Source: a virus
Taxonomy: Duplodnaviria; Heunggongvirae; Uroviricota; Caudoviricetes
IMG/VR virus record: IMGVR_UViG_3300029839_000128
Reading direction: 5' to 3' (one strand)
DNA: 64,000 bases
Numbering within the stretch: the stretch's first letter is position 1; every line of letters begins with the position of its first letter. The notes beneath the pieces are model-generated. The model was given only the letters and a program-made list of their open reading frames with translations, made no database searches and had not been told where the DNA came from. Positions 885 through 60,891 of this stretch are shown piece by piece. A program made the translations under genes and the position numbers.

Positions 885-903
885 AATCAATCACCTGAAT
901 AAT

Positions 904-1335
904 TTAATGAGTTGCAATAGGGCAGATGGTCATTCCGCGATCTTTGAAATATTGAATAGCATCGTCGGCGTGTAAATGCTCGAAAATCCATTCGACAGAG
1001 ACATAACGACGCTCTTTATAGGTTGTTCGGTAGGAAATGGTCTTGAAGTCTTTGGGGAAGAGTTTGCAGACGGAATCTTCCGGCCATTCACGGTGCCATG
1101 CACGAATATAAGGACGCCTACGAAAGAAGGTATGCGCCATATACAAACCTTCGTAAATATCAGCGTTCTCTGACTCCAGGCGATCTCTCATCAGTTCCCA
1201 ATCAATCGCGTTAGCAATTACCAGAACTTCCGGGATTTTTGCGTCGTCGCCACTACACCAACCGCTATACCCACACCGCACCCATTCGCCATCATCGATC
1301 TTAAATTCGTGGGCTACATCATAGATTTTCAACAT
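904..1335 (-). CDS. hypothetical protein (143 aa)
   Basis: ORF track. Tightly packed with neighbours on the same strand. Confidence 0.5.
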   Translation of the reverse strand: MLKIYDVAHEFKIDDGEWVRCGYSGWCSGDDAKIPEVLVIANAIDWELMRDRLESENADIYEGLYMAHTFFRRRPYIRAWHREWPEDSVCKLFPKDFKTISYRTTYKERRYVSVEWIFEHLHADDAIQYFKDRGMTICPIATH

Positions 1336-1704
1336 TTAACGCTTCCTCCAAGTATAACGCTTAACGCGAACATCCAACTTATAGCGTTGAGCGGTTTCTA
1401 TCATGTGGTGAGTTCCTTTGCTCTGTCCGTCCCAAAAAGCTACAAGCGCATCGGCGTTCTTTGCCATTTCCTCATTGCGGATGTATCCAGCAGCGCGTCC
1501 GTGTTCATCCCAGTCAGCTTCAAAATACCGGATACTATAACCGCGCTCTTTGGCATAGCGCTCACCAAGTCGATCGGCCCCACGAGCCATACCACAAACA
1601 ATTTGGATCTCATCGGTCACATTTGCCAGCAGTCGATCCATAACTTGAGCAAGTCCCTCGTAGTTATTGAAGTCACGGCCACCAGCAATGATTACGCGAA
1701 ACAT
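1336..1704 (-). CDS. SLOG-family (DUF2493/YspA-like, DprA/LOG-related) protein
   Basis: IIAGGRDF...GMARGADRLGERYAKERGY...ADALVAFWDGQSKGT matches the Rossmann-like SLOG/DUF2493 phage protein pattern. Confidence 0.55.
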   Translation of the reverse strand: MFRVIIAGGRDFNNYEGLAQVMDRLLANVTDEIQIVCGMARGADRLGERYAKERGYSIRYFEADWDEHGRAAGYIRNEEMAKNADALVAFWDGQSKGTHHMIETAQRYKLDVRVKRYTWRKR

Positions 1705-1716
1705 GAGACCACCTCG

Positions 1717-2175
1717 TTACAGCTTATACAGCACCAGACTATTGTGCTCAAATACTTCAGCCAACATATCCAGCACTGCGCCCCAGTCGCCACCGGCAAG
1801 ACCGCAGCCAATTCGATAAGGCATAGCAATTTCTACGTCAGGCGGAATATAGCCGGCAACTGGAGAACAGGCAGTCCGAAGAGCGCTCAGATCAGTACAA
1901 GAGCGAAAACGACTGTAATCCAGTTGACCAAACAAATTGATAATCATTCGTCCATCTCTGACATGGACACCAAGGTTTTGCCCTAACAGTTCAGCAGGGT
2001 TACGGCGGTGTTCATTGCAGACGCGCTTATACTCCTCATACACTTCAGGGTACATTGCTTTGATCTGCTTGGCAATACCAGCGCCCATAACTCCCATACA
2101 ATTCACTTGATGGCAGATATACATAGCTCTGGAACGAAGAACATCACCTTTCTTAATGGTAATCATTACAGCCAC
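1717..2175 (-). CDS. macro-domain protein (ADP-ribose binding/processing, Appr-1''-pase family)
   Basis: ICHQVNCMGVMGAGIAKQIKAMYPEVYEEYK resembles the macro-domain N-terminal Gly-rich ADP-ribose pocket. Size 152 aa. Confidence 0.6.
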   Translation of the reverse strand: MAVMITIKKGDVLRSRAMYICHQVNCMGVMGAGIAKQIKAMYPEVYEEYKRVCNEHRRNPAELLGQNLGVHVRDGRMIINLFGQLDYSRFRSCTDLSALRTACSPVAGYIPPDVEIAMPYRIGCGLAGGDWGAVLDMLAEVFEHNSLVLYKL

Positions 2176-2999
2176 ACCTCTACATATTCACGCTCTTTGG
2201 AGAAAATAGGCGGACACTTATCGACAACCCACCGTCGGCGCTCGATAATACGGTCTTCCATGGGGATACCTACGATCTGCTTATAGCAGCAAGAACCATA
2301 TTTCATACAGTGAGGATAATCCTCCCAATCAATGCCACGCTCCAGCAACATTTCCAGAATGTTGGCTTGGTTTTTCTTATGCAGTTCCTTGGCACTGTAA
2401 AATGCTTGCCCCGCTGCTTCAATACTGTTGCGAATGGCATCCTGCTGTCGCCAGATCAAACAGTTGCAGACTTCTTCTTTGGGTAGGGTAAAAACACGAG
2501 AATCAAACAGGGCATCTTTAGTAATCGCTTTTGAATATCGCCGGCACCGCTCTTTATCTTCCTCTGAATTAAAATCAACACGATGCTCCTTTTGATTGAT
2601 AGCGGAGTTCCGCATAAAGAAGTGACGCATCTGTTCTTTGAATGCGCGATTAAAAGCCAAGGTTGCCATGCTTGCAGAAACGCTTGCCATCTTCTGAATA
2701 TTGTAACCAAACCAACTGTCTGTGGTGAGGGTAGCGTAATCGGTAAGCACCAAGGTAATCTCATCGGACTGGGTATATCCGAAAACACAACCCTGAATAT
2801 TCTCACAGAGATATTTCATCGTATCCTGCATAGCGGCGGTCAACACTTCATCAAAAGGTTTTTTGAAGCCTTTGGTAAAGGTATGAAAAGCTTTACCATC
2901 CAATCGAATGATGACAGGAACACGACGGGTTAGATAATTCCGAGAGACGCCCTCGTACTTCTTCATACGATCGCCTAAGCTATCTTTCTTGTTTGCCAT
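2166..2999 (-). CDS. tRNA-His guanylyltransferase (Thg1)-like protein (TLP), 3'-5' nucleotide addition / tRNA 5'-end repair enzyme
   Basis: N-terminus RRVPVIIRLDGKAFHTFTKGF and GYTQSDEITLVL match the two Thg1-family catalytic motifs (hhhR.DG+.F.+F and SDE carboxylates). Length 277 aa fits. Confidence 0.7.
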   Translation of the reverse strand: MANKKDSLGDRMKKYEGVSRNYLTRRVPVIIRLDGKAFHTFTKGFKKPFDEVLTAAMQDTMKYLCENIQGCVFGYTQSDEITLVLTDYATLTTDSWFGYNIQKMASVSASMATLAFNRAFKEQMRHFFMRNSAINQKEHRVDFNSEEDKERCRRYSKAITKDALFDSRVFTLPKEEVCNCLIWRQQDAIRNSIEAAGQAFYSAKELHKKNQANILEMLLERGIDWEDYPHCMKYGSCCYKQIVGIPMEDRIIERRRWVVDKCPPIFSKEREYVEVWL

Positions 3000-3024
3000 A
3001 TCATTTTACCTCCTGATTGGCAGT

Positions 3025-3813: not shown

Positions 3814-3816
3814 ACC

Positions 3817-3999
3817 TCAAAACTCATTTTCCATGGAATGATATCTTTGAGGACACCCTTTGCACAACTCCTCCGCATAGGCGTCTCCATCAGGGCATTG
3901 CATACCATATCCATACTCACAGCTCAAATCCTGGGTATCTCCATACCATCTTTCTGTGATGGTGCCACCACAAGCACCAGTATAGCAAACATCGTTCAT
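3817..3999 (-). CDS. small Cys-rich protein (60 aa)
   Basis: ORF track. RBS GGAGG 7 nt upstream. Preceded by the conserved leader motif (4013-4033) and a sigma70-like promoter (4039-4066). Confidence 0.5.
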   Translation of the reverse strand: MNDVCYTGACGGTITERWYGDTQDLSCEYGYGMQCPDGDAYAEELCKGCPQRYHSMENEF

Positions 4000-4012: not shown

Positions 4013-4066
4013 AATGATTTTATGAGTTGCTAAAAATAGTATATCACGGATCTCCAATTTGTCAAG
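4013..4066 (-). promoter_or_regulatory. sigma70-like promoter (TTGACA-N17-TATACT, 4039-4066) followed by the conserved 21-nt leader motif TTAGCAACTCATAAAATCATT (4013-4033) abutting the RBS
   Basis: Read on the minus strand: CTCTTGACAAATTGGAGATCCGTGATATACTATTTTTAGCAACTCATAAAATCATTTGGAGGTTAGTGCATG. Confidence 0.55.
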
Positions 4067-4117
4067 AGGAAATCCGTGATTTTATGAGTTGCTATTTGAA
4101 GTTTTTGCGAAGACGGC

Positions 4118-11996: not shown

Positions 11997-12035
11997 GTAA
12001 CCACTCCTTGCAATAATTTAATGAGTTGCTATGAA

Positions 12036-19996: not shown

Positions 19997-20014
19997 TTTA
20001 ACCTCCTAAATGAT

Positions 20015-20647
20015 TTAATCAGTTGCTTTCTCGGTTAAAAAGGTTGCCTCCATATCAGCTAAATGCGCCATAGCAGCCAGCGGGCACATTTCATATGCCT
20101 TATTCATACTGCTGTCACCGCCCTTGACTGCTGCATCAAAAGCTCCCATATGGAACCGGATCGCAAAAATTTCGTCTCGCTTGAGTTTGATAAAACTCTG
20201 AAGAATAATAACGGATTTTTCGCCATGGCCGAGAGGGAGCCGATCCTCAACCTTATAGTAAGGTTCTGCCACCCAATCAAAATAGCCACGCTCATCTTTC
20301 TTCGATCCACTATCGCTATATACCTTGACATTTTTGTAGTCAACAGCATAGTAGTTGGCTTTGGTCAGATCGTGAAACAAGGCAACAACAATAACCGATT
20401 CGGGATCAATACTCAAATCGGGATACCTGCCGACCATACCAACCAGGGCATCATAGACATTCAGACTGTGCTCAAGCAGCCCACCACGATAGCAGCCGTG
20501 AAAGCGAGAACTCGCAGGAGCAGTATAGAAATCAGACTTTTCAAGCCACTCCATCAAGGCATTCATGCCATCACGCTTAACAGTGCTACACAAGCTGATG
20601 AAGCGAGATTTCAATGCCTCCAGCTTCTCACCATCTTCCATAGACAT
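20015..20647 (-). CDS. HD-domain phosphohydrolase
   Basis: H...LFHDLTK HD motif. Start MSMEDGEK at 20647 with AGGAGTG RBS (track ORF extends to 20728). Confidence 0.6.
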   Translation of the reverse strand: MSMEDGEKLEALKSRFISLCSTVKRDGMNALMEWLEKSDFYTAPASSRFHGCYRGGLLEHSLNVYDALVGMVGRYPDLSIDPESVIVVALFHDLTKANYYAVDYKNVKVYSDSGSKKDERGYFDWVAEPYYKVEDRLPLGHGEKSVIILQSFIKLKRDEIFAIRFHMGAFDAAVKGGDSSMNKAYEMCPLAAMAHLADMEATFLTEKATD

Positions 20648-23141: not shown

Positions 23142-23156
23142 ATTAGTTCCTCCTCT

Positions 23157-23185
23157 ATTACAAATAGATTTTTAGGTTTGCTAAC
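23157..23185 (-). promoter_or_regulatory. phage promoter motif (TTAGCAAA-N16-TGTAAT family)
   Basis: Minus strand reads AGTTAGCAAACCTAAAAATCTATTTGTAATAGAGGAGG, then ATG. Confidence 0.5.
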
Positions 23186-23431
23186 TTATTTTTCTTTAGA
23201 GCTGCTTGAACTGTGGCTAAACAGTAGGTAACACAAGAAGTACAGCGCGTAAGCCTGCCAGTATGTAATAGCAGGGAGGCTAAACACAGCCGGCACTACC
23301 GCATTCCAAAGCAGCATGACCGGAAGTGCAGCCACCAAACCAATCACGGCCACCAGAACAGCAGCAAGGAACACCACACCAATACCATAAATCAGGGTTT
23401 TCACTACATTTCCTCCTCTCTTAATGGGCAT
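23186..23431 (-). CDS. small membrane protein (2 TM segments)
   Basis: Hydrophobic segments. Start overlaps the stop of the kinase-HD gene (operon end). Confidence 0.5.
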   Translation of the reverse strand: MPIKRGGNVVKTLIYGIGVVFLAAVLVAVIGLVAALPVMLLWNAVVPAVFSLPAITYWQAYALYFLCYLLFSHSSSSSKEK

Positions 23432-25144: not shown

Positions 25145-25448
25145 CGTATGGCTCCTTTCTGATACAGTCTCGAACGAGTCGCTGATACAACAGTGGGTCG
25201 TATTGTTCCATATCCGACCAGAACATCAGATACTCGCTGTTCTTATATGTGTCTGTCACATCGCCAGAAGCGTCATAGAATCGGCCTCCAATCTCCTGAA
25301 CGAAATGGTTTTTGACTGGCTCATACATCATAGTTCCGCCAAAACGCTCTTGGAGGATAAAGGCAAACCAATAGCAACATCCACATAAAAAAGTTTCCTC
25401 AGCACCTTTGAAATGACGAATGAAATCAAGAACGATTTCTTTATCCAT
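25137..25448 (-). CDS. hypothetical protein (about 103 aa)
   Basis: Start MDKEIVLDF at 25448, overlapping the ligase stop by 8 nt (track ORF is longer). Confidence 0.4.
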   Translation of the reverse strand: MDKEIVLDFIRHFKGAEETFLCGCCYWFAFILQERFGGTMMYEPVKNHFVQEIGGRFYDASGDVTDTYKNSEYLMFWSDMEQYDPLLYQRLVRDCIRKEPYDD

Positions 25449-26946: not shown

Positions 26947-26968
26947 AATGATTTTATGAGTTGCTATT
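26947..26968 (-). promoter_or_regulatory. conserved leader motif (TAGCAACTCATAAAATCATTA) immediately upstream of RBS
   Basis: Minus-strand read AATAGCAACTCATAAAATCATTAAAGGAGTG. Confidence 0.5.
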
Positions 26969-28144: not shown

Positions 28145-28218
28145 TCAATACACTCCCCGTAAATAAAGGAGACTCAGAAACGATTAACATTAGGTGTTTC
28201 TTTCGTTCTGAGCCTCCC

Positions 28219-28239
28219 TTAATTTAATGAGTTGCTAAC
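28219..28239 (-). promoter_or_regulatory. conserved leader motif (GTTAGCAACTCATTAAATTAA)
   Basis: Upstream of the cysteine desulfurase. Followed by AAGGGAGG and a hairpin (CTCAGAACG...CGTTTCTGAG). Confidence 0.45.
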
Positions 28240-31018: not shown

Positions 31019-31112
<94 letters not shown>

Positions 31113-32653: not shown

Positions 32654-32723
32654 CGATACCCCCCCCTATGTTAAAATAGATGATTTAATGAGTTGCTATT
32701 CTAAACCTAAATGGCCGAAGCCA

Positions 32724-33641
32724 TTAGGTAAAGAGCTGCTTATAAAGCTTGTAGTCACGCACTCGCGCAACACGTTTGGCTTTGTTATTCAGATCCTCGC
32801 AAAATACCTTGGAAGCAAATTCCGGGTCATCCAAATCAAAAGAAGAGCTTTCGCACTCCAATCGGTATGCGCGGTAGAAAATACCAGAGATATATACCAC
32901 ATCATACCGAAGAGAATAAACGCGACCAGCGATGGCGTTCAGACGATAAAGCATTCCGCGCATATTGTCCAAGTCAATCTGAGGATTCCGCTCGGTACGA
33001 ATCAAATACTCGGAATACATATATTTGTGAAAGATCAAGCCTCTGGCTTGCTGATAATATCCTTCGGCATCCCGCAAGCGTTCAAATAGCCGGCAAATTT
33101 CGTAGGGCATTTCGATCTTCTCATCGCCCTTCATCACACCATCCTCAAGAACTGCATCTTTTCGGAAGTTGATAATTTCATCCTCGGTGAATCCATACCA
33201 GGCAAGGTAAAGTATTGCGGAAGGAAGATCGTAAAGTGTATCGTCATAGCTATCTGCGGATCTTACAGAATCGTTAATAGCCGCCTGCAATGTTGCAAGA
33301 TTTTTGTGGTAATGAATGTGCTTACTGTTCTTGATACTCAGGTCATCAACGGTGACAGATGCTAAAATTTGTTCCTGTTCCGCAGGAAGAATCCCGTGAG
33401 CAATCAAATATCGGATATAGAACATTACTACTGCCTTGTGGTTGGGGAGAGTTCTGGTGTGCCGGATACGCATGGAATTAAACATGGCAACAAACTCTTC
33501 TTTGGTAAATCCGCTATCCAGAGATTTTCCAATCTCCTGCTCATAAGCTTCGACCTTTTTCCAGACCTGATCGAATACTTTCAGATTTGCGAAAGAGGAG
33601 TATCCGTTTTCGGAGTCCTCGAAAAACTTCTTGCGGATCAT
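32724..33641 (-). CDS. hypothetical protein (305 aa)
   Basis: Start MIRKKFF at 33641 with GGATAGGAGAGGGG RBS (track ORF extends to 33716). Confidence 0.5.
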   Translation of the reverse strand: MIRKKFFEDSENGYSSFANLKVFDQVWKKVEAYEQEIGKSLDSGFTKEEFVAMFNSMRIRHTRTLPNHKAVVMFYIRYLIAHGILPAEQEQILASVTVDDLSIKNSKHIHYHKNLATLQAAINDSVRSADSYDDTLYDLPSAILYLAWYGFTEDEIINFRKDAVLEDGVMKGDEKIEMPYEICRLFERLRDAEGYYQQARGLIFHKYMYSEYLIRTERNPQIDLDNMRGMLYRLNAIAGRVYSLRYDVVYISGIFYRAYRLECESSSFDLDDPEFASKVFCEDLNNKAKRVARVRDYKLYKQLFT

Positions 33642-33751
33642 ATTCCCCTCTCCTATCCGTCGAATATTTTTCTGTGTTACTATAATAGCACTTGCGCTGA
33701 ACTTTGTCAATAGCAAATCAGAAAATTATTCAAAGAACTTATCGAGGAGTT

Positions 33752-38481: not shown

Positions 38482-38501
38482 GTCACCTACTTTCTACTCC
38501 T

Positions 38502-38531
38502 ATTACAGACGATTATGACATACTGCTAACC
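38502..38531 (-). promoter_or_regulatory. phage promoter motif (variant CTGCTAACC) upstream of the MTase-helicase gene
   Basis: Plus strand tattacagacgattatgacatactgctaacc. Confidence 0.45.
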
Positions 38532-43004: not shown

Positions 43005-43034
43005 GATTCGCCCTCCTCTTAAACTCGTCATTAT

Positions 43035-43065
43035 ATTTACAGAAGAAATATCATTCTTGCTAACC
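43035..43065 (-). promoter_or_regulatory. phage promoter motif (TTAGCAAG...TGTAAAT)
   Basis: Plus strand atttacagaagaaatatcattcttgctaacc. Confidence 0.45.
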
Positions 43066-43413: not shown

Positions 43414-43492
43414 TGATTCCTCCTACCGTATAAATCATTTATCCTGTTTGTATTACAGGAAAACGCCAGCATCTGCTAACTTGAAAGAAAAA

Positions 43493-44847: not shown

Positions 44848-44895
44848 TGTATTGACCTCCTCAAAATTGTGTGGCAGGTGGTGCTGCCTATTCTT

Positions 44896-44926
44896 ATTTC
44901 AGAATAATTTAGTTATTTGCTAACTT
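44896..44926 (-). promoter_or_regulatory. phage promoter motif
   Basis: Plus strand atttcagaataatttagttatttgctaac. Confidence 0.45.
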
Positions 44927-45135: not shown

Positions 45136-45192
45136 TTTCTCGCACCTCCTATTGCTCTCACAGATCAAAATGCAGTTTTGCTAACCGTTACT

Positions 45193-46368: not shown

Positions 46369-46398
46369 AAAAAACCTCCTATTTTTTAATTGGTATTA

Positions 46399-46430
46399 TA
46401 TTTACAGACAAAGCGTGCAGTTTGCTAACC
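46399..46430 (-). promoter_or_regulatory. phage promoter motif
   Basis: Plus strand tatttacagacaaagcgtgcagtttgctaacc. Confidence 0.45.
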
Positions 46431-47013: not shown

Positions 47014-47226
47014 TTACACCTCCATCAGTTTGGAAAGTACCGCATAAAGGGTGCGGTAGTAATCGGAATTATACTTGTTCTGTGCGATTGCTTTGAGCTG
47101 ATACAACGCTTCGGTACAATCATTGATTTCAGCTTCGCTGGTGACGCCCACAATCTTGCATAACGCCTGGGCAATATCGTCGGGGTAGTATTGATCATGT
47201 GCAGGTTTCATAACTTGCCTCCTCAT
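47014..47226 (-). CDS. small protein (70 aa)
   Basis: ORF track. Promoter motif 47231-47260. Confidence 0.4.
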   Translation of the reverse strand: MRRQVMKPAHDQYYPDDIAQALCKIVGVTSEAEINDCTEALYQLKAIAQNKYNSDYYRTLYAVLSKLMEV

Positions 47227-47231
47227 TTTTA

Positions 47232-47483
47232 TTACAGACCGATATGGGCATTTGCTAACCCGGTAGAAAGATTTTTCCCGTCATAATAATCCAGAACAGA
47301 TTGAATACAGTCCAGCGCGGAAGGAGTAAAATGATCGCGCAAATCATCAATAATAGCCGGTACATCCAGCCGACATCCAATATACGGCTCGATTGCCTGC
47401 TCTATATACAGTTTTGCAGCAGGAGAATCAGCAACGCCAGCCTCAACAATTTCATCGTATAGGTCGCTAAAAATAATACTCAT
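47232..47483 (-). CDS. small protein (83 aa)
   Basis: ORF track. Its 3' end overlaps the next promoter motif. Confidence 0.4.
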   Translation of the reverse strand: MSIIFSDLYDEIVEAGVADSPAAKLYIEQAIEPYIGCRLDVPAIIDDLRDHFTPSALDCIQSVLDYYDGKNLSTGLANAHIGL

Positions 47484-47716: not shown

Positions 47717-47823
47717 CTCCTATTATATTTACAGACTCCTATCACTTTTTGCTAACCAAAAAGTAAAAAAAGATAAAAGGGGAGACCGACCACCACGACG
47801 ATCTCCCCAGGGGTTCCTACTAT

Positions 47824-48293: not shown

Positions 48294-48352
48294 TATTTAT
48301 CACTCTCCTCATTCATATTCCAGAGTGATTTTCTGTTTTGCTAACTGAAAAA

Positions 48353-49024: not shown

Positions 49025-49043
49025 ATCTACACCTCCTATTACT

Positions 49044-49072
49044 ATTACAGAAAGAAAAAGTTATTTGCTAAC
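49044..49072 (-). promoter_or_regulatory. phage promoter motif (reference example)
   Basis: Minus strand GGTTAGCAAATAACTTTTTCTTTCTGTAATAGTAATAGGAGG, then ATG. Confidence 0.5.
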
Positions 49073-49079
49073 CAATAGG

Positions 49080-49794: not shown

Positions 49795-49860
49795 CTCTCA
49801 AAGTATTTGGGCTTTCTATTTTAATTACAGATAAAAAGTATGATTTGCTAACCATAAAAT

Positions 49861-50289: not shown

Positions 50290-50375
50290 GGTCTCGCCTC
50301 CAAAGTTTATTCTGTTATTGCTATTTCTATTACAGAACCGAAGAGCATTTTGCTAACCGGAAAAATAAAAAAAAT

Positions 50376-50530: not shown

Positions 50531-50575
50531 TCTATTTATGTTTCAGAAACTACTCTGGTTTTGCTAACCATAAAA

Positions 50576-50962: not shown

Positions 50963-51006
50963 TGTATCAGCCTCCTATTTTTATTACAGAAGGGAAGCGG
51001 TGTTTG

Positions 51007-51264
51007 CTAACCGCCTCCACAATTTATTCCCTTGTAAATATCGCCTCGTGACGCAACACGGTGAACAATTACATCCCCATTGCTTTTGTCGTAGGCAAAA
51101 ATGATCCGATATTTTCCAACGCGCAGCCGATAGGTTCCCTCATAGTACATAGGAATAATATCGCCCTCCGGCAGTAATCCCAAAGCTCTCTCCACCCGTT
51201 CCCTGTTACGGTGATCCATTGCTTTAACACTACGCTTCGCTGTATTCAGATATTTGATCTTCAT
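51007..51264 (-). CDS. RelE/ParE-family toxin-like protein (type II TA toxin fold)
   Basis: 85 aa. LPEGDIIPMYYEGTYRLRVGKYRIIFAYDKSNGDVIVHRVASRGDIY matches the RelE/ParE core (YRlRvGdYRiiy...R). GGAGG RBS. Co-transcribed with the upstream 150-aa gene. Confidence 0.6.
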   Translation of the reverse strand: MKIKYLNTAKRSVKAMDHRNRERVERALGLLPEGDIIPMYYEGTYRLRVGKYRIIFAYDKSNGDVIVHRVASRGDIYKGINCGGG

Positions 51265-51730: not shown

Positions 51731-51807
51731 GGTGTTGCCTCCTTTGTTTCTGTTCTCATTTTTATTACAGATAGTTTTTGATATCTGCTAACCAAAAAAA
51801 ATAAAAA

Positions 51808-52242: not shown

Positions 52243-52305
52243 TCGTTCCTATTCTTATTACAGAATACTTTTTGATTTTGCTAACCAGTCAATAAAAAAA
52301 GATAA

Positions 52306-52841: not shown

Positions 52842-52858
52842 CCTCCGTCTGTGATATC

Positions 52859-52887
52859 TTGACTTGATTTCAAGTTCCTATTATAAT
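52859..52887 (+). promoter_or_regulatory. sigma70-type promoter TTGACT-N17-TATAAT on the plus strand (antisense to the early region)
   Basis: TTGACTTGATTTCAAGTTCCTATTATAAT. Overlaps the minus-strand phage promoter motif 52885-52915. Confidence 0.5.
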
Positions 52888-52951
52888 TACAGACAGAAAA
52901 GCGGTCTTGCTAACCGTTCCAAAAAATTATTTTTCGGGTGATTTCGTGGAG

Positions 52952-53152
52952 CTTGCGCTTGTAATCGTCGTGATCTGGCTAATAGCCGATGCAATCAAAG
53001 GATATAAGGCAGAGCGGTACGCGCAGAAAACCGTATTCGATCGTAAGCTTTCGTTCCCGGATTATATGTGTTCAAAACACCCGATCATGTCCACTTGCAT
53101 GATAATTTTGCTCTTGCTAACCGTAATTGCAATTTTTCTTAAAATTTTCTAA
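52952..53152 (+). CDS. small hydrophobic protein (about 66 aa, two predicted TM helices) encoded antisense within the early region
   Basis: GTG 52952 with GGGTGA RBS (track ORF 52907..53152). Own sigma70 promoter upstream. Plus-strand terminator CCCGCTGGAAGATGATCCAGCGGG plus T7 at 53164-53195. Confidence 0.45.
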   Translation, partial: LALVIVVIWLIADAIKGYKAERYAQKTVFDRKLSFPDYMCSKHPIMSTCMIILLLLTVIAIFLKIF

Positions 53153-53163
53153 AGTAAAATAGC

Positions 53164-53195
53164 CCGCTGGAAGATGATCCAGCGGGCATTTTTTT
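53164..53195 (+). terminator. intrinsic terminator (hairpin + TTTTTTT)
   Basis: AGCCCGCTGGAAGATGATCCAGCGGGCATTTTTTT. Confidence 0.6.
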
Positions 53196-53700: not shown

Positions 53701-53805
53701 TGTTACGCCTCCATTCGTTCTATCTATTATTATTACAAACACAAAAGAGGATTTGCTAACCTGTTTTCAAATAAAAAAACGGCAGGCCGTAGCCTGCCGC
53801 CCTGG

Positions 53806-54063: not shown

Positions 54064-54141
54064 TTTACACCCTCCATTTTTCGTTGTTCTATTTATATTA
54101 CAGAACGAAAGAGGATTTTGCTAACCAGTTCCATAAAAAAA

Positions 54142-54576: not shown

Positions 54577-54643
54577 CTTTTATCGCCTCCTATTATTATT
54601 ACAGACTCCGATCCGAATTTGCTAACCATCTAAATAAAAAAAA

Positions 54644-54976: not shown

Positions 54977-55088
54977 AATTCACAGCCTCCATTCTGTGTT
55001 CTTGTTCCTATTATCATTACAGACGCTGAATCTGATTTGCTAACCAGAAACAAAAAAAAAGAACGGTGGGAGATCCCCGCCGCTTCTT

Positions 55089-55310: not shown

Positions 55311-55455
55311 CTCCGTCCTCCTGTTCCGTTGTGCGTTACTCTTCTGTTATTATTACAGACGCAGCCCACGATCTGCTAACCGATACGGAAAATTTTCTTG
55401 TGCGGATGGAAAAGAAAACGGGCGGGAGCCTCAGCCCTCGCCCGTCGTCCTTCGT

Positions 55456-55737: not shown

Positions 55738-55820
55738 GATTTATCTGTTCGTGTTCTGGATTTCTCTATTCTTATTACAGAAACTTTCCCGGCTCTGCTA
55801 ACCATTCCAGCAAAAAAAAC

Positions 55821-56016: not shown

Positions 56017-56376
56017 TCAGATGAAGTACATCTCGCCATTGATTTCCAGGGCAACGGCTTCCTGCTCCATCTCGTTCTTCAGTTCTTCGCACAGGGAGAC
56101 GACTTCCTCAATGTGCTGCTGCAGGTCGGCGTCGCTGGCATAGGCGAAAACTACGGTGGTGTTCTCAGCTACCAGACCAGCCACAGGGGAAAGCCAGTAG
56201 CCCAGCGCCGGGGTGCTGGTGGCACCGCCGAAATACTCAGAGAGGGCAGAGGCAACGCGCTTGACCTGCGCGGTGTTGTCGGTGGCCGTGTCCACGCCGT
56301 TGGTGGCGGGCACATAGACGGTGATCTTGCTGGAGAGCTTCAGGCAGTTCTTGAGCTTGGCGTTGACGATGTTCAT
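56017..56376 (-). CDS. hypothetical protein (119 aa), GC-rich codon usage
   Basis: ORF track. Hybrid promoter/leader motif 56446-56475. Confidence 0.45.
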   Translation of the reverse strand: MNIVNAKLKNCLKLSSKITVYVPATNGVDTATDNTAQVKRVASALSEYFGGATSTPALGYWLSPVAGLVAENTTVVFAYASDADLQQHIEEVVSLCEELKNEMEQEAVALEINGEMYFI

Positions 56377-56445
56377 AATTCAAACCCCTTTTCTATTCAT
56401 GGCCGGCGGCCTGGTGTTGACCGCCGGCTCGGTGTTCCTGTTCTT

Positions 56446-56475
56446 ATTTCAGAATGGTTTTATGAGTTGCTAACC
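56446..56475 (-). promoter_or_regulatory. hybrid motif containing both the TTATGAGTTGCTAACC leader-type and the ATTTCAGAA promoter-type elements
   Basis: Plus strand atttcagaatggttttatgagttgctaacc. Confidence 0.45.
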
Positions 56476-56491: not shown

Positions 56492-57307
56492 TCAGCAGGC
56501 CACGGACTGGAGAGCCGCCCGCATTTTCACGATCCGCTTGTGTACAGCCACATTGGAGATCTTGACCTCGGCGGCAATCTCCCGCTCGGTCATCCCAGCG
56601 GCCACGCGCTCCAGAATGGCCTGATCCATCGCGTCCCGCCCGCTCTTGAAGCGTTCCAGGTCAGCCCGGATGATGGCGCTGGTCTCGGTGTTCGTGGTCA
56701 GGTCGGCAACTCTGGTCTCGGTGTAGCTCTCGGCCTCGCCGTTGTCGTTGGTAATCTCGAAGTCGGTCGCGGCGGCGTGCTTGCTGTCCTGGTAGAAGAT
56801 GGCCGCGATGCTGGCGCGGGCGGCGTTGTAAACGATGGAGATCAAGGTGATAGGGCGCTTGCCCTGAGCGGCGCGGCGCTCATTGGTGGCGGTCAGCTTG
56901 TCAGGATCAAGGGCAGCGGCCACGCGCAGCCAGGTTTCAGAAACAAACTCGTCGAGATCATGCGGCCCGTACAGGCCAAAGGCGGGAACCTCGGAGAACT
57001 GCAGGTAATGGTCTTCGGTGCTGTAGCCGATGGCGTTGCGGGCGGCGCGGTGAATGCAACGCTTCATCATGTTGACCTGCTCGGCCTCGGTCATGTTGCC
57101 CCAGCTGGCGACGCGCTCCGCAGCGTTGCGGGCGGCGTGCTGTCCCTCGGCCTCCGCCCACGCTATGCGCAGGCACTCGCCCATGATGACCTCGGAGACC
57201 TTGCAGCCGATTTCCTCGGCGGCGTTGCGGCGGATGTCCCAGGCGCGCCCCATGATGGCGGTGAGGTCGTAGGTCTTGCGGGTGGTGGTGTTGGTGGTGG
57301 TAGTCAT
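56492..57307 (-). CDS. sigma-70-family-like transcription factor (region-4 HTH), GC-rich
   Basis: C-terminus GMTEREIAAEVKISNVAVHKRIVKMRAAL resembles sigma70 region 4.2 / ECF-type HTH. 271 aa. GC about 65 percent with strong third-position GC bias, unlike the rest of the window. Two tandem leader motifs upstream. Confidence 0.5.
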   Translation of the reverse strand: MTTTTNTTTRKTYDLTAIMGRAWDIRRNAAEEIGCKVSEVIMGECLRIAWAEAEGQHAARNAAERVASWGNMTEAEQVNMMKRCIHRAARNAIGYSTEDHYLQFSEVPAFGLYGPHDLDEFVSETWLRVAAALDPDKLTATNERRAAQGKRPITLISIVYNAARASIAAIFYQDSKHAAATDFEITNDNGEAESYTETRVADLTTNTETSAIIRADLERFKSGRDAMDQAILERVAAGMTEREIAAEVKISNVAVHKRIVKMRAALQSVAC

Positions 57308-57323
57308 AGTATTGAACCCCTTT

Positions 57324-57465
57324 CAATCATTTTATGAGTTGCTATCGGAAGCGATCCGGGAATCCGATCCATCCGCCACGGCGGAGGCCGTTTCCCGCTC
57401 CCTTTATCTATACCTATTTTACCACCGTCAAGGGTATTTGTCAATCATTTTATGAGTTGCTAACC
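57324..57465 (-). promoter_or_regulatory. two tandem copies of the conserved leader motif (57324-57345 and 57443-57465) upstream of the sigma-like gene
   Basis: caatcattttatgagttgctat and caatcattttatgagttgctaac. Confidence 0.45.
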
Positions 57466-57479
57466 TGACAGAGAGGGGT

Positions 57480-58300
57480 GAAAAGTGACGAAATACAAGG
57501 CACAAAATTGTGCAGTATAACGAACGGCAACCGCCTGCCCCCAGCCCACCAGCCCAGCGGGATCATGCCAGCCCAGCGCCCAGCCTGCCCACCTGAGACG
57601 GCAGCGCCACGCCGCAGGCCAGCAGGAGCAAGGCCAGACGGCAGCGCGGAGCAGCCCGCGCCCGTACAGGCAGAGAGGCAGGCCAGCGGGAGAGCAGTAA
57701 CGACGGAGCAGGAGCGGAGCAGGCAAGCCGCCGCCAGAGCCGCACCAGCCCCACCCAGCCACACCACCAGCCGCCAGCCCCGACCAGCAGACCAACCACG
57801 CCCAGCCGGAGACCGTGCAGCCGATCCAATCCAACCCAGCCCCAGCGCCCGGAGCGATCCCGTGAGAGAGTCCAGAGGAGGGGAGGAGGGGAGGGAGGGA
57901 GAGAGGAGCGGCGCGGCCATCGGTGCAAATTTCCCGCCCAGGTCATAATATGCCGAACACGCCGCCCAACCGCCCAGGGCAGACCGTCCCGGAGCGATCC
58001 AGCCCCAGCGCCACCAGAGAGCAACCGGAACCGCCCGCCGTGCTGCGCTGCAGTTCTGCTTTTGGAGAGAATGCAGAACCAGCGACCCCGCAACCCCCGA
58101 AGAGCGACGGAAGACAGCCCCACCCGGCAGCAGTAGCCCCACCAGACCGGGGGAGCCTCGACATTTCCGCGACGCCCGCTCATCTACGATAAGCGTTCAG
58201 TACCTTCACCTCCACACCATTTCCCCAAAAACCAACTCAACCCCCAACCGCCATCGTATGTTATACCCTTACAACTCCTCGTCGGAGCCTCACTCAAGCT
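57480..58300. repeat. GC-rich (above 65 percent), strongly T-depleted low-complexity region with CCAGCC/CAGC-type short repeats and a purine tract
   Basis: Direct reading finds very few T on the plus strand. Track ORFs here encode Pro/Ala/Gln/Arg-rich low-complexity peptides on both strands. No RBS or promoter found. Confidence 0.5.
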
Positions 58301-58450
58301 AACCCACGTTTGTCAAGGTATTTTTGCTGTTTTCATGCACTTTTGAAACTGCTGTCCTTTCAGGGCTTTCCGTCATTTTGACGAAACCGTAACCTACGAA
58401 GATCTCCGTTGGTTCAATCCGAAAAGCAACAAATTAAATTAAAGATACTA

Positions 58451-58479
58451 TTGACTTTGACGGTACTTTTGTGTATAAT
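58451..58479 (+). promoter_or_regulatory. sigma70 consensus promoter TTGACT-N17-TATAAT
   Basis: ttgactttgacggtacttttgtgtataat. Followed by leader hairpin GTGGAAATCCAC and leader motif 58512-58528. Confidence 0.65.
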
Positions 58480-58511: not shown

Positions 58512-58528
58512 ATAGCAACTCATAAAAT
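58512..58528 (+). promoter_or_regulatory. conserved leader motif ATAGCAACTCATAAAAT (plus-strand copy) immediately upstream of RBS GAGGTGA
   Basis: Same motif as the minus-strand copies. Shows the motif follows gene orientation. Confidence 0.5.
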
Positions 58529-58540
58529 GAGGTGATTTGA

Positions 58541-59338
58541 ATGGAAATTCAGATGTCCTTGTTCGATACGGTACCTCAGATCACTGAGACGCCGGCAAGA
58601 GAACCTGGAAAAGTGATCCTTTTCCCTGGCATTCAGGAGACTCAGCCGCCCAAGCCTACTAACTACCGTAAGGGTGGAGAGCAAACCGTATTCCCCATCA
58701 AGAAGCAGGAAGAACTTGAGGCTATGGCGAACTGGCTGCACAAGAATGCAGATCGAAAGTATCTCCTCGGATTTATCCTTGGTATCAATCTGGGTCTGAG
58801 AGCAAACGAGCTGCTTACCCTGAAGCCGGCAGATCTCTTCCATGAGGATCATACTGTAAGGTACTCCCTGGATTTCTCTGATACTTCTGATCAGTATTCC
58901 CTCTACCAGAAGAAGGTTAATAAGCGCAGGCGGTTCTTCCTGAACGAAGCCTGTGTGTCTGCCCTTACATGGTACTATCACGGAGACTTCTCTAAGGCTT
59001 ATAAACATGAATACATTTTTTACTCTCGTGAGGGTGGTCACATCGAGGTAGACACCTTCCGTAAGAAGCTGAAGGATGCAGCTACGGCCTGCGGCATCCG
59101 GCAGAACATCGGAACCCATACACTCCGCAAGACCTTTGGTTATATGCACTACATGAGAAATAAAGATATTGTGTTTCTCCAGAGGCTCTTTGGACATTCA
59201 AGTGCTCTGATCACCATGCGCTATATTGGTATCGCTGAGGAAGAGGAGAAGAGAGCGTATCACTCGGTATCTATCAATTTGCTTGACTCTCTTCCTGTTG
59301 AGGCTGACAGCGACATTGAAAGCACCACCGGCCAGTAG
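58541..59338 (+). CDS. tyrosine recombinase/integrase-family protein (catalytic domain only, 265 aa)
   Basis: LRANELLTLK (box I Arg), HTLRKTF (HxxR), GHSSALITMRYI (box II with Tyr nucleophile). Confidence 0.7.
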   Translation: MEIQMSLFDTVPQITETPAREPGKVILFPGIQETQPPKPTNYRKGGEQTVFPIKKQEELEAMANWLHKNADRKYLLGFILGINLGLRANELLTLKPADLFHEDHTVRYSLDFSDTSDQYSLYQKKVNKRRRFFLNEACVSALTWYYHGDFSKAYKHEYIFYSREGGHIEVDTFRKKLKDAATACGIRQNIGTHTLRKTFGYMHYMRNKDIVFLQRLFGHSSALITMRYIGIAEEEEKRAYHSVSINLLDSLPVEADSDIESTTGQ

Positions 59339-59616
59339 GGGAGGAGGCTTCTTCCTGCAATGACCTTGCTACGGTCTGCCGAGCGAAGCGAGGCAGGAAG
59401 AAGGCAACCCCCTCAGAATTAAAAATTGCGTTTTTCATAACTTTTTAGCCTATTTTGAATGAAGTGAAAAAGAACCTTTTTCCTTTAAGGGCTTGATTTC
59501 ACAAACCCCGATGAATCAAGGGGTTGCGAGGGGTCAAAATCCGAATTTATAACCTCGAAAGTTATAAGCCCATTTTTCGATATCAGAACTTTTGAACATT
59601 TTTGGCTTTTTAGGAG

Positions 59617-60039
59617 GTGTCTATTTTGAGTCGTATAAGCAAGGATGACTACTACCTGAACATTGCTGCGGCGGTGTCAAAGAGATCTACCTGTATCCGC
59701 CGCCAGTACGGAGCGATCATCGTTAAGAATGACCGCATTATTTCCACCGGGTATAATGGCTCTGCTCGCGGAGAGGTAAACTGCTGTGACTCCGGGCGCT
59801 GCTGGAGAGAGGAGAACGGTATTCCTCATGGTGAACGGTATGAGGCTTGTGTAGCCGTACACGCTGAGGACAACGCAATTTCTCAAGCCGGCAGAGAGAC
59901 GATCGGCGCTACGCTTTACTTGGCAGGATTTGAAAACGGAAAGTCTATTCAGGCAGAGCCGTGTATGATGTGCGCCAGAAAGATCAAGAACGCAGGGATT
60001 GTTAAGGTCATTGCTTCGCAACCGGAGGGAGAGGTTTAA
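59617..60039 (+). CDS. deoxycytidylate (dCMP) deaminase
   Basis: HAEDNAI (HAE zinc ligand motif) and PCMMCARKI (PCxxC). Confidence 0.85.
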   Translation: MSILSRISKDDYYLNIAAAVSKRSTCIRRQYGAIIVKNDRIISTGYNGSARGEVNCCDSGRCWREENGIPHGERYEACVAVHAEDNAISQAGRETIGATLYLAGFENGKSIQAEPCMMCARKIKNAGIVKVIASQPEGEV

Positions 60040-60042
60040 TAA

Positions 60043-60627
60043 GTGGGAAGAAATTTATACATCGCCGATACCCATTTCGGCCACAAGAATATTATCCGAT
60101 TTGACAGCCGGCCATTTGCTACGGTTGATGAAATGGAGGAAGAGATGGTCAAACGGTGGAACGTGGCCGTCGAACCATCTGACACCGTATATATCTTAGG
60201 AGATTTCTGCTGGGGAAAGGAAGATGAATGGCTGCGCATCCTGAATATGCTGAAAGGTAGTAAAGTGCTGATTTTAGGCAATCACGATTTGAAGAATATG
60301 AGCAGCCAGCTTCGCAATAAGTTCCAAGATGTCAAAGATAAGAAGGAGATCACGGACGGCGGGCGTCATGTGATCATGTCTCATTATCCAGAGCTGCTTT
60401 ACAAGGGTTCTTATAATCCCTACTGCTATATGCTTTGCGGTCATGTCCATGTTACCCGCGAGAATGATTTCTTGGAGCGCTGGACAGAGGAGCTGCGGCA
60501 GAGTCGGCGAGAACCCAGTCATAGCTTCGGCAACATTATCAATGTAGGCTGCATGATGCCATGGATGGACTTTACTCCCCGCACGCTGGAAGATATTATT
60601 TCCCGAAGGTGGCTGAAATGTATTTAA
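60043..60627 (+). CDS. calcineurin-like metallophosphoesterase
   Basis: DTHFGH, GDFCWG and GNHD motifs. Confidence 0.75.
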   Translation: MGRNLYIADTHFGHKNIIRFDSRPFATVDEMEEEMVKRWNVAVEPSDTVYILGDFCWGKEDEWLRILNMLKGSKVLILGNHDLKNMSSQLRNKFQDVKDKKEITDGGRHVIMSHYPELLYKGSYNPYCYMLCGHVHVTRENDFLERWTEELRQSRREPSHSFGNIINVGCMMPWMDFTPRTLEDIISRRWLKCI

Positions 60628-60824
60628 GCGAAAAGCAGACTCATGCTTTAGAGATGGCTCTTGACGCTATGGACTATCGAAACAGCGGGGCAAAGGACGA
60701 AGAGCAAGAAGAGGCTTACGATACAATTTGTGAAATGCTGAAATCTGCTGCGGAAACAAAGGTTAGGCAAAAGAAAAGACGGGATGAAAAATCCCGGCGT
60801 AATTCTTACAATAGCAACTCATAA
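60618..60824 (+). CDS. small acidic protein (68 aa)
   Basis: Start MYLSEKQ overlaps the upstream stop (track ORF 60561..60824). Confidence 0.4.
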   Translation: MYLSEKQTHALEMALDAMDYRNSGAKDEEQEEAYDTICEMLKSAAETKVRQKKRRDEKSRRNSYNSNS

Positions 60825-60827
60825 AAT
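60811..60827 (+). promoter_or_regulatory. conserved leader motif ATAGCAACTCATAAAAT (plus-strand copy)
   Basis: Followed by hairpin CAGGAGTATCCCATATATCTCCTG and RBS AGGAGGAG before ATG 60892. Confidence 0.45.
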
Positions 60828-60891
60828 TATACAGCAAAAAGTAATGCAGGAGTATCCCATATATCTCCTGTCAGAATAGGAGGAGATATAT

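Follow-up and report, generated by a model that had tools for sequence, protein, structure and literature searches.

MrpR, which acts as master repressor in the Bacillus phage SPbeta, binds the operator SPBRE at 10 peaks of chromatin affinity precipitation sequencing (ChAP-seq; PMC10516654), and SroF of phage phi3T, a monomer when bound, encircles the DNA at an asymmetric A-tract box of 26 bp (bioRxiv 10.1101/2025.11.27.690993). Here we compare with these systems two classes of short repeated motifs in a 64,000-nt stretch of DNA from a virus of the class Caudoviricetes (IMG/VR record IMGVR_UViG_3300029839_000128), referred to below as the window. An earlier note on this stretch had described about 40 copies of a promoter or leader motif with a TTAGCAA core, sub-class 1 ahead of operon-leading genes and sub-class 2 ahead of small genes. 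From the SPbeta sequence (NC_001884) we extracted 11 SPBRE copies, all co-oriented with the local genes and found in three placements: in the spacer between the -35 and -10 elements (yorE, yonP, yorZ, yosX), just upstream of the -35 element (aimR, yonX), and between the -10 element and the Shine-Dalgarno sequence (SD), abutting the latter (yopV, yonX, yopM). Since these operators are also co-oriented and SD-abutting, such features are no argument for a promoter or a leader. Systems of a second kind are the phage sigma cascades, such as those of SPO1 (gp28 and gp33/34), T4 (gp55), and phiEco32 (gp36). The E. coli sigmaE promoter reads GGAACTT-N16-TCTGA. The SPO1 host-takeover module and the early regions of T5 and T4 consist of arrays of small genes under host sigmaA or sigma70 consensus promoters.

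The count given in the earlier note agrees with ours: the window contains 13 strong copies of sub-class 1, 24 strict copies of sub-class 2, and 1-2 variants, both classes together amounting to ~40 copies, far above chance. The two classes probably represent two layers of one circuit, with sub-class 1 serving as repressor operators and sub-class 2 as promoters for a phage sigma factor; we assign this reading a probability of roughly 0.6. Sub-class 1 is most likely the operator of a 305-aa integrase-fold repressor, as judged from fold comparison and the SPbeta precedent. Sub-class 2 behaves as a class of -35/-10 promoters with very short leaders, to judge from its sequence anatomy. The coordinates of all features are listed in Table 1.

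The heptamer TTAGCAA occurs 32 times in the window versus 10.3 ± 2.7 times in shuffled sequences, and 28 of the 32 copies are on the minus strand, which carries nearly all window genes up to ~58 kb. The sub-class 1 consensus, (A/T)TAGCAACTCATWAAATNATT, is 21 bp long, asymmetric and non-palindromic, with an A-tract inside. With up to three mismatches, the 21-mer TTAGCAACTCATWAAATYATT has 14 matches versus 0.02 expected. The 16-nt core TAGCAACTCATWAAAT, with up to two mismatches, yields the 13 strong sites (11 on the minus and 2 on the plus strand), all of which point the same way as the downstream gene. The gene assignments made earlier for these sites hold (thyX, ERF, RNA ligase, class-V aminotransferase, SPFH, sigma-like, tyrosine recombinase, and C5-methyltransferase), and the two textbook sigma70 promoters reported near them are real: TTGACA-16-TATACT, TG-extended, at ~4038-4065 on the minus strand and TTGACT-17-TATAAT at 58451-58479 on the plus strand. 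Placement immediately 5' of the SD, which the earlier note gave for the whole sub-class, is correct for eight strong copies, located 12-21 nt ahead of the start codon and abutting the SD. It does not apply to the copies upstream of a -35 element (4094, 57462, 58424), in a promoter spacer (56472), or in reverse orientation; a further placement is between a -10 element and the SD. The copies at 4094 and 4032 bracket the promoter at 4 kb, the latter starting at the predicted transcription start site (TSS) and running into the SD, and those at 58424 (degenerate) and 58513 bracket the promoter at 58.45 kb. The 57462 copy stops 2 nt ahead of the -35 element of the sigma-like gene, and the 57344 copy abuts the SD of that gene. 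One weaker, reverse-oriented copy (33711) abuts the -35 element of the repressor gene's own promoter.

These placements can be set against the proposal that one dedicated phage factor reads both classes, in which sub-class 1 would be a -10-type promoter lacking a -35 element (CATAAAAT) or a transcribed 5'-leader of middle genes. The co-orientation of all 13 strong copies, the position of eight of them 12-21 nt before a start codon, the near-consensus -10 hexamer in the motif (TAAAAT/TTAAAT), the occurrence of several stand-alone copies with no sigmaA-type promoter upstream, and the TTAGCAA core common to both classes speak in its favour. We nevertheless consider it improbable, because copies also occur upstream of -35 elements, inside a spacer and once reversed; because their register relative to the TSS is not conserved; because distant relatives have the core at position +1 of perfect promoters (TTGACA-N17-TATAAT); and because the proven operators of SPbeta are equally co-oriented and SD-abutting. 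Besides, no phage RNA polymerase gene was found among the window open reading frames (ORFs) of at least 496 aa, ~59 kb of the genome lying outside the window. The earlier view of sub-class 1 as a promoter or transcribed leader is not supported, in the face of off-register placements, an encoded relative of integrase-fold repressors, and the SPBRE precedent. A related possibility, that sub-class 1 is a promoter of the sub-class 2 type with TTAGCAA as its -35 element, was rejected: there is no TCTGTAA-like block 13 nt downstream, and transcription would start past the SD.

The earlier note had also allowed for an RNA-level processing or translation signal. Sub-class 1 would then be a linear site in the translation-initiation region, recognised by a phage translational regulator, by a nuclease that processes the RNA, or by a small RNA. 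The fixed position right 5' of the SD in eight copies, the strictly sense orientation, and the coincidence of the 4032 motif with the predicted very 5' end of the mRNA would suit such a role. Nonetheless, folding of six sub-class 1 copies with their SDs gave no common structure (z-scores -0.8 to +1.4, with differing folds), and an Rfam search over the window returned three tRNA matches only, none of them at the motifs. Conserved copies that precede a -35 element are not followed by an SD (4094, 57462, and orthologues in relatives), and the reversed copy 33711 is located where no gene has a sense transcript. This last site occupies the same place in the relatives L040 and L104, where it follows the variant of the respective phage; conservation of a reverse-oriented site at the repressor promoter points to an action on DNA rather than RNA. 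Altogether, an RNA-level role appears very improbable.

Both motif classes recur in related phages, as the earlier note had suggested checking. The region upstream of the RNA-ligase gene was compared in 80 related loci. Closer relatives have the motif in the same place, each in its own variant (L040-L070, L072/L073, L076, and others); the most distant of the 80 loci have no recognisable motif. The 5' half, (T)TAGCAA(C), is constant, and the 3' half varies by lineage (CTCATAAAAT, CACATTAAAT, CAAAGTAAAT, CAAAGAAAAC, AAACATTAAAG, CGAATAAAAT). A further-out variant, AACAATACAAAAT, resembles the 5' half of SPBRE. Within each genome, one variant recurs at all orthologous regulatory positions, namely before the -35 element of the sigma promoter, at the SD of the sigma gene, in the first sub-class 2 spacer (the hybrid described below), at the Xer-like gene, and after the repressor hairpin. 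The arrangement motif-N2-TTGAC before the -35 element of the sigma promoter is also present in relatives, each with its own variant, and the orthologue of the repressor promoter in L104 has a clear operator at the TSS. Distant relatives show one of two arrangements: either the +1 position of a perfect TTGACA-N17-TATAAT promoter falls on the core, or -35 element and spacer are both provided by the motif. The sub-class 2 blocks are constant across phages whose sub-class 1 variant differs. One factor therefore cannot read both motifs, and two different readers are required.

The proposed reader of sub-class 1 is the 305-aa product of gene 32724-33641. Its AlphaFold2 (AF2) model is of high confidence (pLDDT 93.9, pTM 0.88). 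The best Foldseek match in the PDB is YopR (8bj6; E 1.8e-8), and SroF of phi3T (9rgl, and 9rd5 for the DNA-bound form) and MrpR (8a0a; E 3.1e-7) were also retrieved. YopR, MrpR, and SroF make up the six best matches (E 1.8e-8 to 3.7e-7) and all of ranks 1-7 (to 9.7e-5); the true recombinases XerA, lambda Int, and Cre rank later, with E values of 7.5e-4 or worse. In its integrase-like core-binding and CAT fold, the modelled protein thus appears closer to MrpR and SroF than to true recombinases. The Pfam family MrpR_N_CB matches it below threshold (E 1.1e-4; 23.2 bits versus a cut-off of 27; profile positions 8-78 of 79), as it does five of 11 orthologues. By comparison of catalytic residues, MrpR keeps three of the seven found in recombinases, including K169 and Y304. 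The hhalign sequence alignment, which has a probability of 10%, pairs SGIFYRAY of the 305-aa protein with SGHLYRAY of YopR, so that the His of HxxR would be replaced by Ile. Residues K161, R215, R257, Y297, and Y300 are conserved among homologues of the 305-aa protein. The hairpin followed by an operator after the repressor gene is conserved, with a compensatory change in the stem, in the relatives L041, L044, and L104.

The Xer-like recombinase encoded at 58541-59338 (265 aa) was considered as an alternative analogue of MrpR and rejected, since it matches XerA and keeps the R..HxxR..H..Y motifs of a true recombinase. Its best PDB match is XerA, and it matches the integrase family PHROG 216 (2e-47). 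The protein is short for a phage integrase, and its gene has a sigmaA-type promoter bracketed by operators; it may act in integration, dimer resolution, or regulation. Orf151 (33752-34207, minus strand) sits directly upstream of the repressor gene. No other protein of the neighbourhood diverges as fast (identities of 64, 46, 43, and 29% in relatives), and orf151 is therefore a candidate for an antirepressor comparable to the Sar protein of phi3T. Divergent from it is an ImmR/ImmA-like pair on the plus strand, composed of an HTH_3 protein (34364-34738) and an M78 peptidase (34780-35382).

Sub-class 2 has the consensus GGTTAGCA(A/G)A-N12-TCTGTAATAnnAATAG, with a downstream block that is longer than the earlier note had it and extends to TCTGTAATAnnAATAG(G/A)A. 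The pattern TTAGCA-N15-YTGDAA has 24 strict copies in the window versus 0.08 expected, all 24 on the minus strand; a clear variant at 45149-45186 and a doubtful one at 53120 can be added. Of the ~25 sites previously placed between 43 and 56.5 kb, 22 of the 24 strict copies are indeed found between 43.0 and 56.5 kb, and two lie outside (38494 and 23149). The gap of 13-16 nt proposed in the earlier note had to be corrected: its literal pattern has no matches, because the gap is fixed at 12 nt after GGTTAGCARA (13 after TTAGCAR). Similarly, AGGAGG-ATG within about 10 nt of the motif is found in ~8 of the 24 copies, where AATAGGA(GG) serves as SD; in the remaining copies, the distance from CTG to the beginning of the SD reaches up to 62 nt. 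The interpretation of this class as a -35/-10 promoter with a very short leader was well founded, given two blocks at a fixed distance, in intergenic positions after terminators. All copies are intergenic and on the gene strand, and they usually follow a strong intrinsic terminator by 8-12 nt (14 such terminators; 38 terminator-like sites versus 16 ± 4.7 expected). The hybrid copy containing both motif halves is real as well (56438-56475) and is reinterpreted here as an operator inside a promoter spacer.

Conservation within sub-class 2 is confined to its two short blocks; with ~0 bits of information in spacers and flanks, the copies are no leftovers of intergenic duplication. The many copies in a region of small genes would fit such an origin, but the strand bias is absolute, the blocks are kept in diverged relatives, and sub-class 1 changes in concert within each genome. 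The likelihood that the motifs are functionless duplicates is negligible.

In ~8 copies the AGGAGG inside AATAGGAGG is an SD correctly spaced from ATG. Transcription must therefore start at or before AATAG, and the -10 function is expected to reside in TCTGTAA rather than in the TATAAT-like letters further downstream. TATAAT-like hexamers inside TCTGTAAnTATAAT were accordingly rejected as the -10 element, since the start would fall past the AGGAGG SD of these copies. In the register of sigma factors of the extracytoplasmic function (ECF) type, sub-class 2 reads GGTTAG-N16-TCTGTA. Genuine host-type promoters in the window are few and of the textbook TTGACA/TATAAT type. A sigma70-type promoter scan listed none of the 24 copies, and its sites were not enriched in the region (26 versus 19 ± 4.4 in shuffles).

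It is possible, if unlikely, that sub-class 2 is read by host sigmaA, either alone or with the sigma-like 271-aa protein acting as a sigma4/LuxR-type activator at GGTTAGCAAA, in which case there would be no bona fide phage sigma factor. The register TTAGCA-N16-TGTAAT fits sigmaA at 9 of 12 positions, the region upstream of the copies is T-rich and UP-like, the matches of the 271-aa protein to sigma families are all under the curated cut-offs, and for the early genes of phages, transcription by host polymerase in its unmodified form is the usual case. The candidate -10 element, however, lacks the key A at position 2, and the real sigmaA-type promoters of the same phage, unlike the copies of sub-class 2, are of the textbook kind. 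It is also atypical for sigmaA that GG, TC, and AATAG, which lie outside the hexamers, are strictly conserved. The profile TIGR02937 covers both sigma2 and sigma4 of the 271-aa protein, Foldseek aligns whole sigma factors to it, and the promoter consensus differs in the clade where this protein is 39% identical.

The 271-aa protein (56492-57307) is encoded by the only sigma-like gene in the window. TIGR02937 (sigma70-ECF) matches residues 116-268 below threshold but near full-length (E 1.6e-4; profile positions 26-163 of 165), taking in sigma2 as well as sigma4, and matches a homologue at 2.1e-6. PHROG 1740, "RNA polymerase sigma factor", gives 2.2e-5, and the Pfam family Sigma70_r4_2 matches 11 of 21 homologues. 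Foldseek with the predicted structure (pLDDT 76) returned almost entirely sigma factors (E 0.04-0.3; 170-290 aligned columns). A profile of the family searched against PDB sequences gave helix-turn-helix matches only, with E values above 0.03. Autoregulation together with a co-transcribed anti-sigma factor is typical, though not universal, of ECF sigmas; when it was looked for, the gene was found to be preceded by a sigmaA-type promoter and operators and by no sub-class 2 promoter; the next gene (56017-56376) has no anti-sigma signature.

A class of promoters with -35 and -10 blocks at fixed spacing, of the ~16-17 nt usual for ECF sigmas, is thus present, and position and co-variation link it to this protein. 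Given its sub-threshold ECF similarity, the position of its gene at the head of the array in all relatives, and the changed consensus in the 39%-identical clade, the 271-aa protein is a plausible best candidate for the reader of sub-class 2. This evidence is circumstantial and favours a phage-specific factor over unmodified host sigmaA. The earlier note had named the same protein as a plausible candidate for a dedicated reader of the motif as a whole; it remains the candidate for sub-class 2 and not for sub-class 1.

The sub-class 2 blocks are kept in relatives where the surrounding DNA is 70-85% identical or unalignable. Every related locus with the sigma gene and enough downstream DNA has loose sub-class 2 matches, from 3 to 19 on the gene strand, the fewest being found in relatives with a 54-62%-identical sigma. 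In the sister clade L169-L183 (e.g., L171, 10900-16300), the sigma protein is 39-40% identical, and the promoters are GGTTAATTTT-N12-CTGGTAGATATAATAGGA in the same geometry (consensus blocks also given as GGTTAATTTT/CTGGTAGAT), likewise after terminators. This clade offers a natural specificity pair for swaps of sigma factors and promoters.

The products of the array include a DUF932 protein (E 7.5e-60), a DarA_C "defence against restriction" protein (1.7e-18), and a DnaJ-domain protein, encoded at 43924-44847 (DUF932), 49080-49487, and 52335-52832; this is typical of an early or anti-defence-like set. Within the array there is a 361-nt gap free of ORFs (52833-53193). It contains TTGACT-N17-TATAAT on the plus (antisense) strand at 52859-52887, a degenerate sub-class 2 -35 block at 53114-53120, and, at 53162-53187, a terminator that works in both directions; a small or antisense RNA may be encoded here. 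The sigma-like gene lies in a GC-rich island (56500-58250; GC 0.62-0.70 versus ~0.45 elsewhere), and its GC content at third codon positions is 0.85 versus 0.49 in other genes. The ~1 kb between the divergent promoters of the sigma-like and Xer-like genes (57444-57416, minus strand; 58451-58479, plus strand) contains no convincing ORF; a ~180-bp patch of it (~58036-58217) is 70-73% conserved in many relatives.

Taken together, the motif statistics and placements, the folds and similarities, and the pattern of conservation and co-variation suggest a circuit in which binding partners, transcription starts, and temporal order would be as follows. In the lysogen, the integrase-fold repressor would sit on ~13-17 operators, occluding the sigmaA promoters that serve the sigma gene, the operon at 4 kb, and the Xer-like gene; its own promoter would be moderated. 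It would also fill the spacer of the first sigma-dependent promoter, the hybrid, and so block it. The stand-alone sites abutting SDs may act as roadblocks or local blocks at the head of replication, nucleotide, and RNA-repair gene blocks, and the site at 32698, right after the repressor hairpin, may stop read-through into lytic genes. Loss of the repressor would permit expression of the phage sigma factor from its sigmaA promoter, upon which ~25 early units would fire, sub-class 2 being read by host core RNA polymerase with the 271-aa ECF-like sigma. Transcription would start around AATAG, with mRNAs beginning at or just before the SD, and each small early gene would form one terminator-bounded unit.

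Several observations weigh against this circuit. When sequences alone are compared, the 305-aa protein resembles MrpR weakly (hhalign E 0.003, probability 10%); phmmer and profile searches against PDB sequences returned nothing relevant and no MrpR chain, and BLASTP against YopR was not significant (identity ~15%). Only the fold comparison settled the family assignment. Identity among repressor orthologues (81, 63, 60, and 40%) falls somewhat faster than that of the RNA ligase (87, 74, 70, and 66%), but the sigma, Xer-like, and XRE proteins diverge nearly in parallel with the repressor. Co-variation therefore does not identify the reader of sub-class 1, and the choice of the repressor follows from structural homology and the SPbeta precedent. 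Five or six stand-alone SD-abutting operators have no good sigmaA -35/-10 elements upstream, so that their repressed target is unclear, and the operator sequence itself includes a -10-like TAAAAT. On the side of sub-class 2, the best sigmaA register, TTAGCA-N16-TGTAAT, matches at 9 of 12 positions, with G at -10 position 2. Finally, the 5' half of the operator (TAGCAA) equals the core of the sub-class 2 -35 element, for which the two-layer circuit does not account.

Operator and sub-class 2 -35 element have the invariant core (T)TAGCAA in common in every relative. One may speculate that the operator is a -35 element with a phage-specific extension, and that at ~40 sites this core is contested between the repressor and the phage sigma, through region 4 of the latter. 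On this view the repressor would use the SD-abutting operators to gate entry, pausing, or a roadblock, and one monomeric repressor could silence a 56-kb leftward unit with no need for a promoter at every site. We know of no description of such a shared-core roadblock design for SPbeta-type repressors or phage sigma cascades, and regard this extension of the two-layer circuit as doubtful.

Table 1. Coordinates of the regulatory features and candidate regulator genes in the 64,000-nt window.
Feature	Coordinates	Strand	Remarks
Sub-class 1 operator	898..918	-	Abuts SD of ORF 559-885; 1 mismatch in 16-mer
Sub-class 1 operator	4013..4033	-	At TSS of 4-kb sigmaA-type promoter; abuts SD of ORF 3817-3999
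SigmaA-type promoter TTGACA-16-TATACT, TG-extended	4038..4065	-	11/12 match; operator on either side
Sub-class 1 operator	4075..4095	-	Upstream of -35 of 4-kb promoter
Sub-class 1 operator	12012..12032	-	Abuts SD of thyX (11331-11996)
Sub-class 1 operator, 2 mismatches	20009..20029	-	Abuts SD of ERF gene (19244-19996)
Sub-class 2 promoter, TTTGTAA variant	23149..23186	-	Ahead of ORF 22716-23141
Sub-class 1 operator	26947..26967	-	Abuts SD of RNA-ligase gene (25441-26931)
Sub-class 1 operator	28218..28238	-	Upstream of class-V aminotransferase gene (26990-28144)
Sub-class 1 operator	32679..32699	-	Right after hairpin 3' of repressor gene, ahead of SPFH operon
MrpR/YopR/SroF-family (integrase-fold) repressor candidate, 305 aa; proposed sub-class 1 reader	32724..33641	-	Pfam, AF2, Foldseek
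SigmaA-type promoter of repressor gene, TTGACA-N17-TATTAT	33682..33710	-	Read from sequence; degenerate operator at TSS (TAGTAACACAGAAAAAT)
Weak reversed sub-class 1 site TAGCAAATCAGAAAAT	33710..33730	+	Abuts -35 of repressor promoter
Sub-class 2 promoter of N6-methyltransferase/SNF2 helicase gene (35431-38481)	38494..38531	-	Pattern
Sub-class 2 promoter	43028..43065	-	Pattern; terminator 43100-43076
Sub-class 2 promoter	43444..43481	-	Pattern
Sub-class 2 promoter, operator-like spacer (degenerate second hybrid)	44888..44925	-	Ahead of DUF932 gene
Sub-class 2 variant GGTTAGCAAA-N12-TCTGTGAG	45149..45186	-	Outside strict pattern
Sub-class 2 promoter	46393..46430	-	Pattern; terminator 46466-46441
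Sub-class 2 promoter	47223..47260	-	Pattern
Sub-class 2 promoter	47720..47757	-	Pattern
Sub-class 2 promoter, TCTGGAA variant	48309..48346	-	Pattern; terminator 48384-48360
Sub-class 2 promoter	49036..49073	-	Pattern
Sub-class 2 promoter	49816..49853	-	Pattern; terminator 49888-49863
Sub-class 2 promoter	50321..50358	-	Pattern
Sub-class 2 promoter, TCTGAAA variant	50532..50569	-	Pattern
Sub-class 2 promoter	50975..51012	-	Pattern
Sub-class 2 promoter	51756..51793	-	Pattern; terminator 51833-51806
Sub-class 2 promoter	52249..52286	-	Pattern; terminator 52330-52303
Sub-class 2 promoter, DnaJ-domain gene	52878..52915	-	Pattern
Sub-class 2 promoter	53724..53761	-	Pattern; terminator 53803-53776
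Sub-class 2 promoter	54089..54126	-	Pattern; terminator 54162-54141
Sub-class 2 promoter	54590..54627	-	Pattern; terminator 54664-54643
Sub-class 2 promoter	55008..55045	-	Pattern
Sub-class 2 promoter	55344..55381	-	Pattern
Sub-class 2 promoter	55766..55803	-	Pattern; terminator 55846-55818 upstream
Hybrid: first sub-class 2 promoter after sigma gene, sub-class 1 core in spacer	56438..56475	-	Motif scans
Divergent ECF-like sigma candidate, 271 aa, N-terminal Gp111-like extension; proposed sub-class 2 reader	56492..57307	-	
Sub-class 1 operator	57325..57345	-	Abuts SD of sigma-like gene
SigmaA-type promoter of sigma-like gene, TTGACA-17-TAAAAT, TG	57416..57444	-	11/12 match
Sub-class 1 operator	57443..57463	-	Ends 2 nt ahead of sigma-gene promoter -35
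Degenerate sub-class 1 site	58423..58443	+	Upstream of -35 of 58.45-kb promoter; 3 mismatches
SigmaA-type promoter of Xer-like recombinase gene, TTGACT-17-TATAAT	58451..58479	+	Promoter scan
Sub-class 1 operator	58512..58532	+	Abuts SD of Xer-like recombinase gene (58541-59338)
Sub-class 1 operator	60811..60831	+	Upstream of C5-methyltransferase gene (60892-62592)

The window represents about half of a ~123-kb phage genome and is 98% identical to a 123-kb IMG/VR contig (IMGVR_UViG_3300045988_147693). Genes for replication and nucleotide metabolism include those for a DnaE-type polymerase, DnaG/DnaB, NrdD, ThyX, and ERF; the C5-methyltransferase, an N6-methyltransferase/SNF2 helicase, the Xer-like recombinase, and the HTH_3/M78 (ImmR/ImmA-like) pair are also encoded. 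Two parts of the window, 14.5 kb and 12 kb long, had no match among INPHARED phages by megablast. The nearest cultured phages are Bacillus siphophages of ~165 kb, with DnaE identity of ~38%, and the phage belongs to a large family of metagenomic phages of 70-200 kb. The closest named homologue of one window protein, 97% identical, is annotated in Flavonifractor sp. An4. The exact 305-aa repressor protein is present in 213 blocks of a public assembly collection, on contigs of up to 285 kb, as would be expected of a prophage that is integrated and abundant in gut Clostridia. A scan of contigs from species-representative genomes with the sub-class 1 21-mer gave single chance-level matches only, in unrelated taxa, so this set of genomes includes no host with the phage. 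Probably, this is a large temperate phage of gut Clostridia, whose host is Flavonifractor or another member of the Oscillospiraceae.

RNA-repair-like genes are dispersed in the window at 2166-2999, 23421-24332, 25441-26931, and 28240-29775. The set comprises a Thg1-like tRNA-His guanylyltransferase, an AAA_33 kinase that is PNK-like and carries an HD domain, an RNA ligase, and a Ro-like protein, and several of these genes have a sub-class 1 operator at their head. The three Rfam tRNA matches lie in 29853-31112 and adjoin the Ro/TROVE-like DUF2828/DUF7788 gene at 28240-29775 (PHROG 850, "RNA-binding protein"). Two of them span 112-113 nt (29853-29965 and 30617-30728, minus strand) and were not called by ARAGORN, which reported tRNA-Thr (30373-30449) and tRNA-Ser (31020-31112) in the same region. 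The two long matches could be tRNA-like or Y-RNA-like elements, or intron-containing tRNAs.

If the two-layer circuit is correct, the repression logic of SPbeta would extend to temperate phages of Clostridia in the human gut, a large and abundant family with genomes of 120-200 kb. To our knowledge, integrase-fold monomeric repressors (MrpR/SroF) have been described only in 2023-2025 and only in SPbeta-like phages of Bacillus. The family would provide a ready set of operator variants matched to repressor variants for the study of specificity, and a regulon of ~25 promoters in which a divergent phage ECF-like sigma drives anti-defence-like early genes, with a second specificity class in the sister clade. 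With both motifs at hand, sequence alone would suffice to predict the transcription units and immunity groups of these uncultivated phages.

Among known systems, MrpR of SPbeta and SroF of phi3T are the best structural match. They share with the proposed repressor a length of ~305-325 aa and quick divergence among relatives, and their operators are likewise asymmetric, ~20-26 bp long, and A/T-rich with an A-tract, in ~11-13 co-oriented copies per genome. SPBRE and sub-class 1 occur in the same three placements (promoter spacer, upstream of -35, and between -10 and SD), and SPbeta, too, is a large temperate phage with a DnaE-type polymerase, helicase/primase, and a C5-methyltransferase. The phage studied here differs from SPbeta in its host, a gut anaerobe of the Clostridium class instead of Bacillus, in the operator sequence, in a protein identity of ~15%, and in having many stand-alone operators inside long operons. 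No arbitrium genes (AimR/AimP) were noticed in the window, where no systematic search for them was made, and an ImmR/ImmA-like pair adjoins the repressor gene in place of the LexA-controlled Sar.

With phage sigma cascades, the locus shares a phage gene with sub-threshold similarity to sigma2 plus sigma4, itself behind a host-type promoter, and a large set of phage-specific promoters with fixed spacing; the -10 block TCTG(T/A)AA resembles the TCTGA of sigmaE-type promoters. In contrast to those cascades, the sigma factor here appears to drive small early, anti-defence-like genes instead of middle or late ones. It also differs from phage and ECF sigmas in its Gp111-like N-terminal extension and sub-threshold scores, and no anti-sigma or autoregulatory promoter was seen. 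The early arrays of SPO1, T5, and T4 are similar in that many small genes each have a strong promoter and a terminator of their own and in their anti-restriction-like products (DarA_C, DUF932), but here the promoter is non-consensus and phage-specific. The proposed repressor would gate a phage sigma and an ECF-type promoter, both of which SPbeta lacks. The MrpR/SroF-SPBRE system and the phage sigma cascade are each of a known kind; it is their proposed wiring together that SPbeta does not show.

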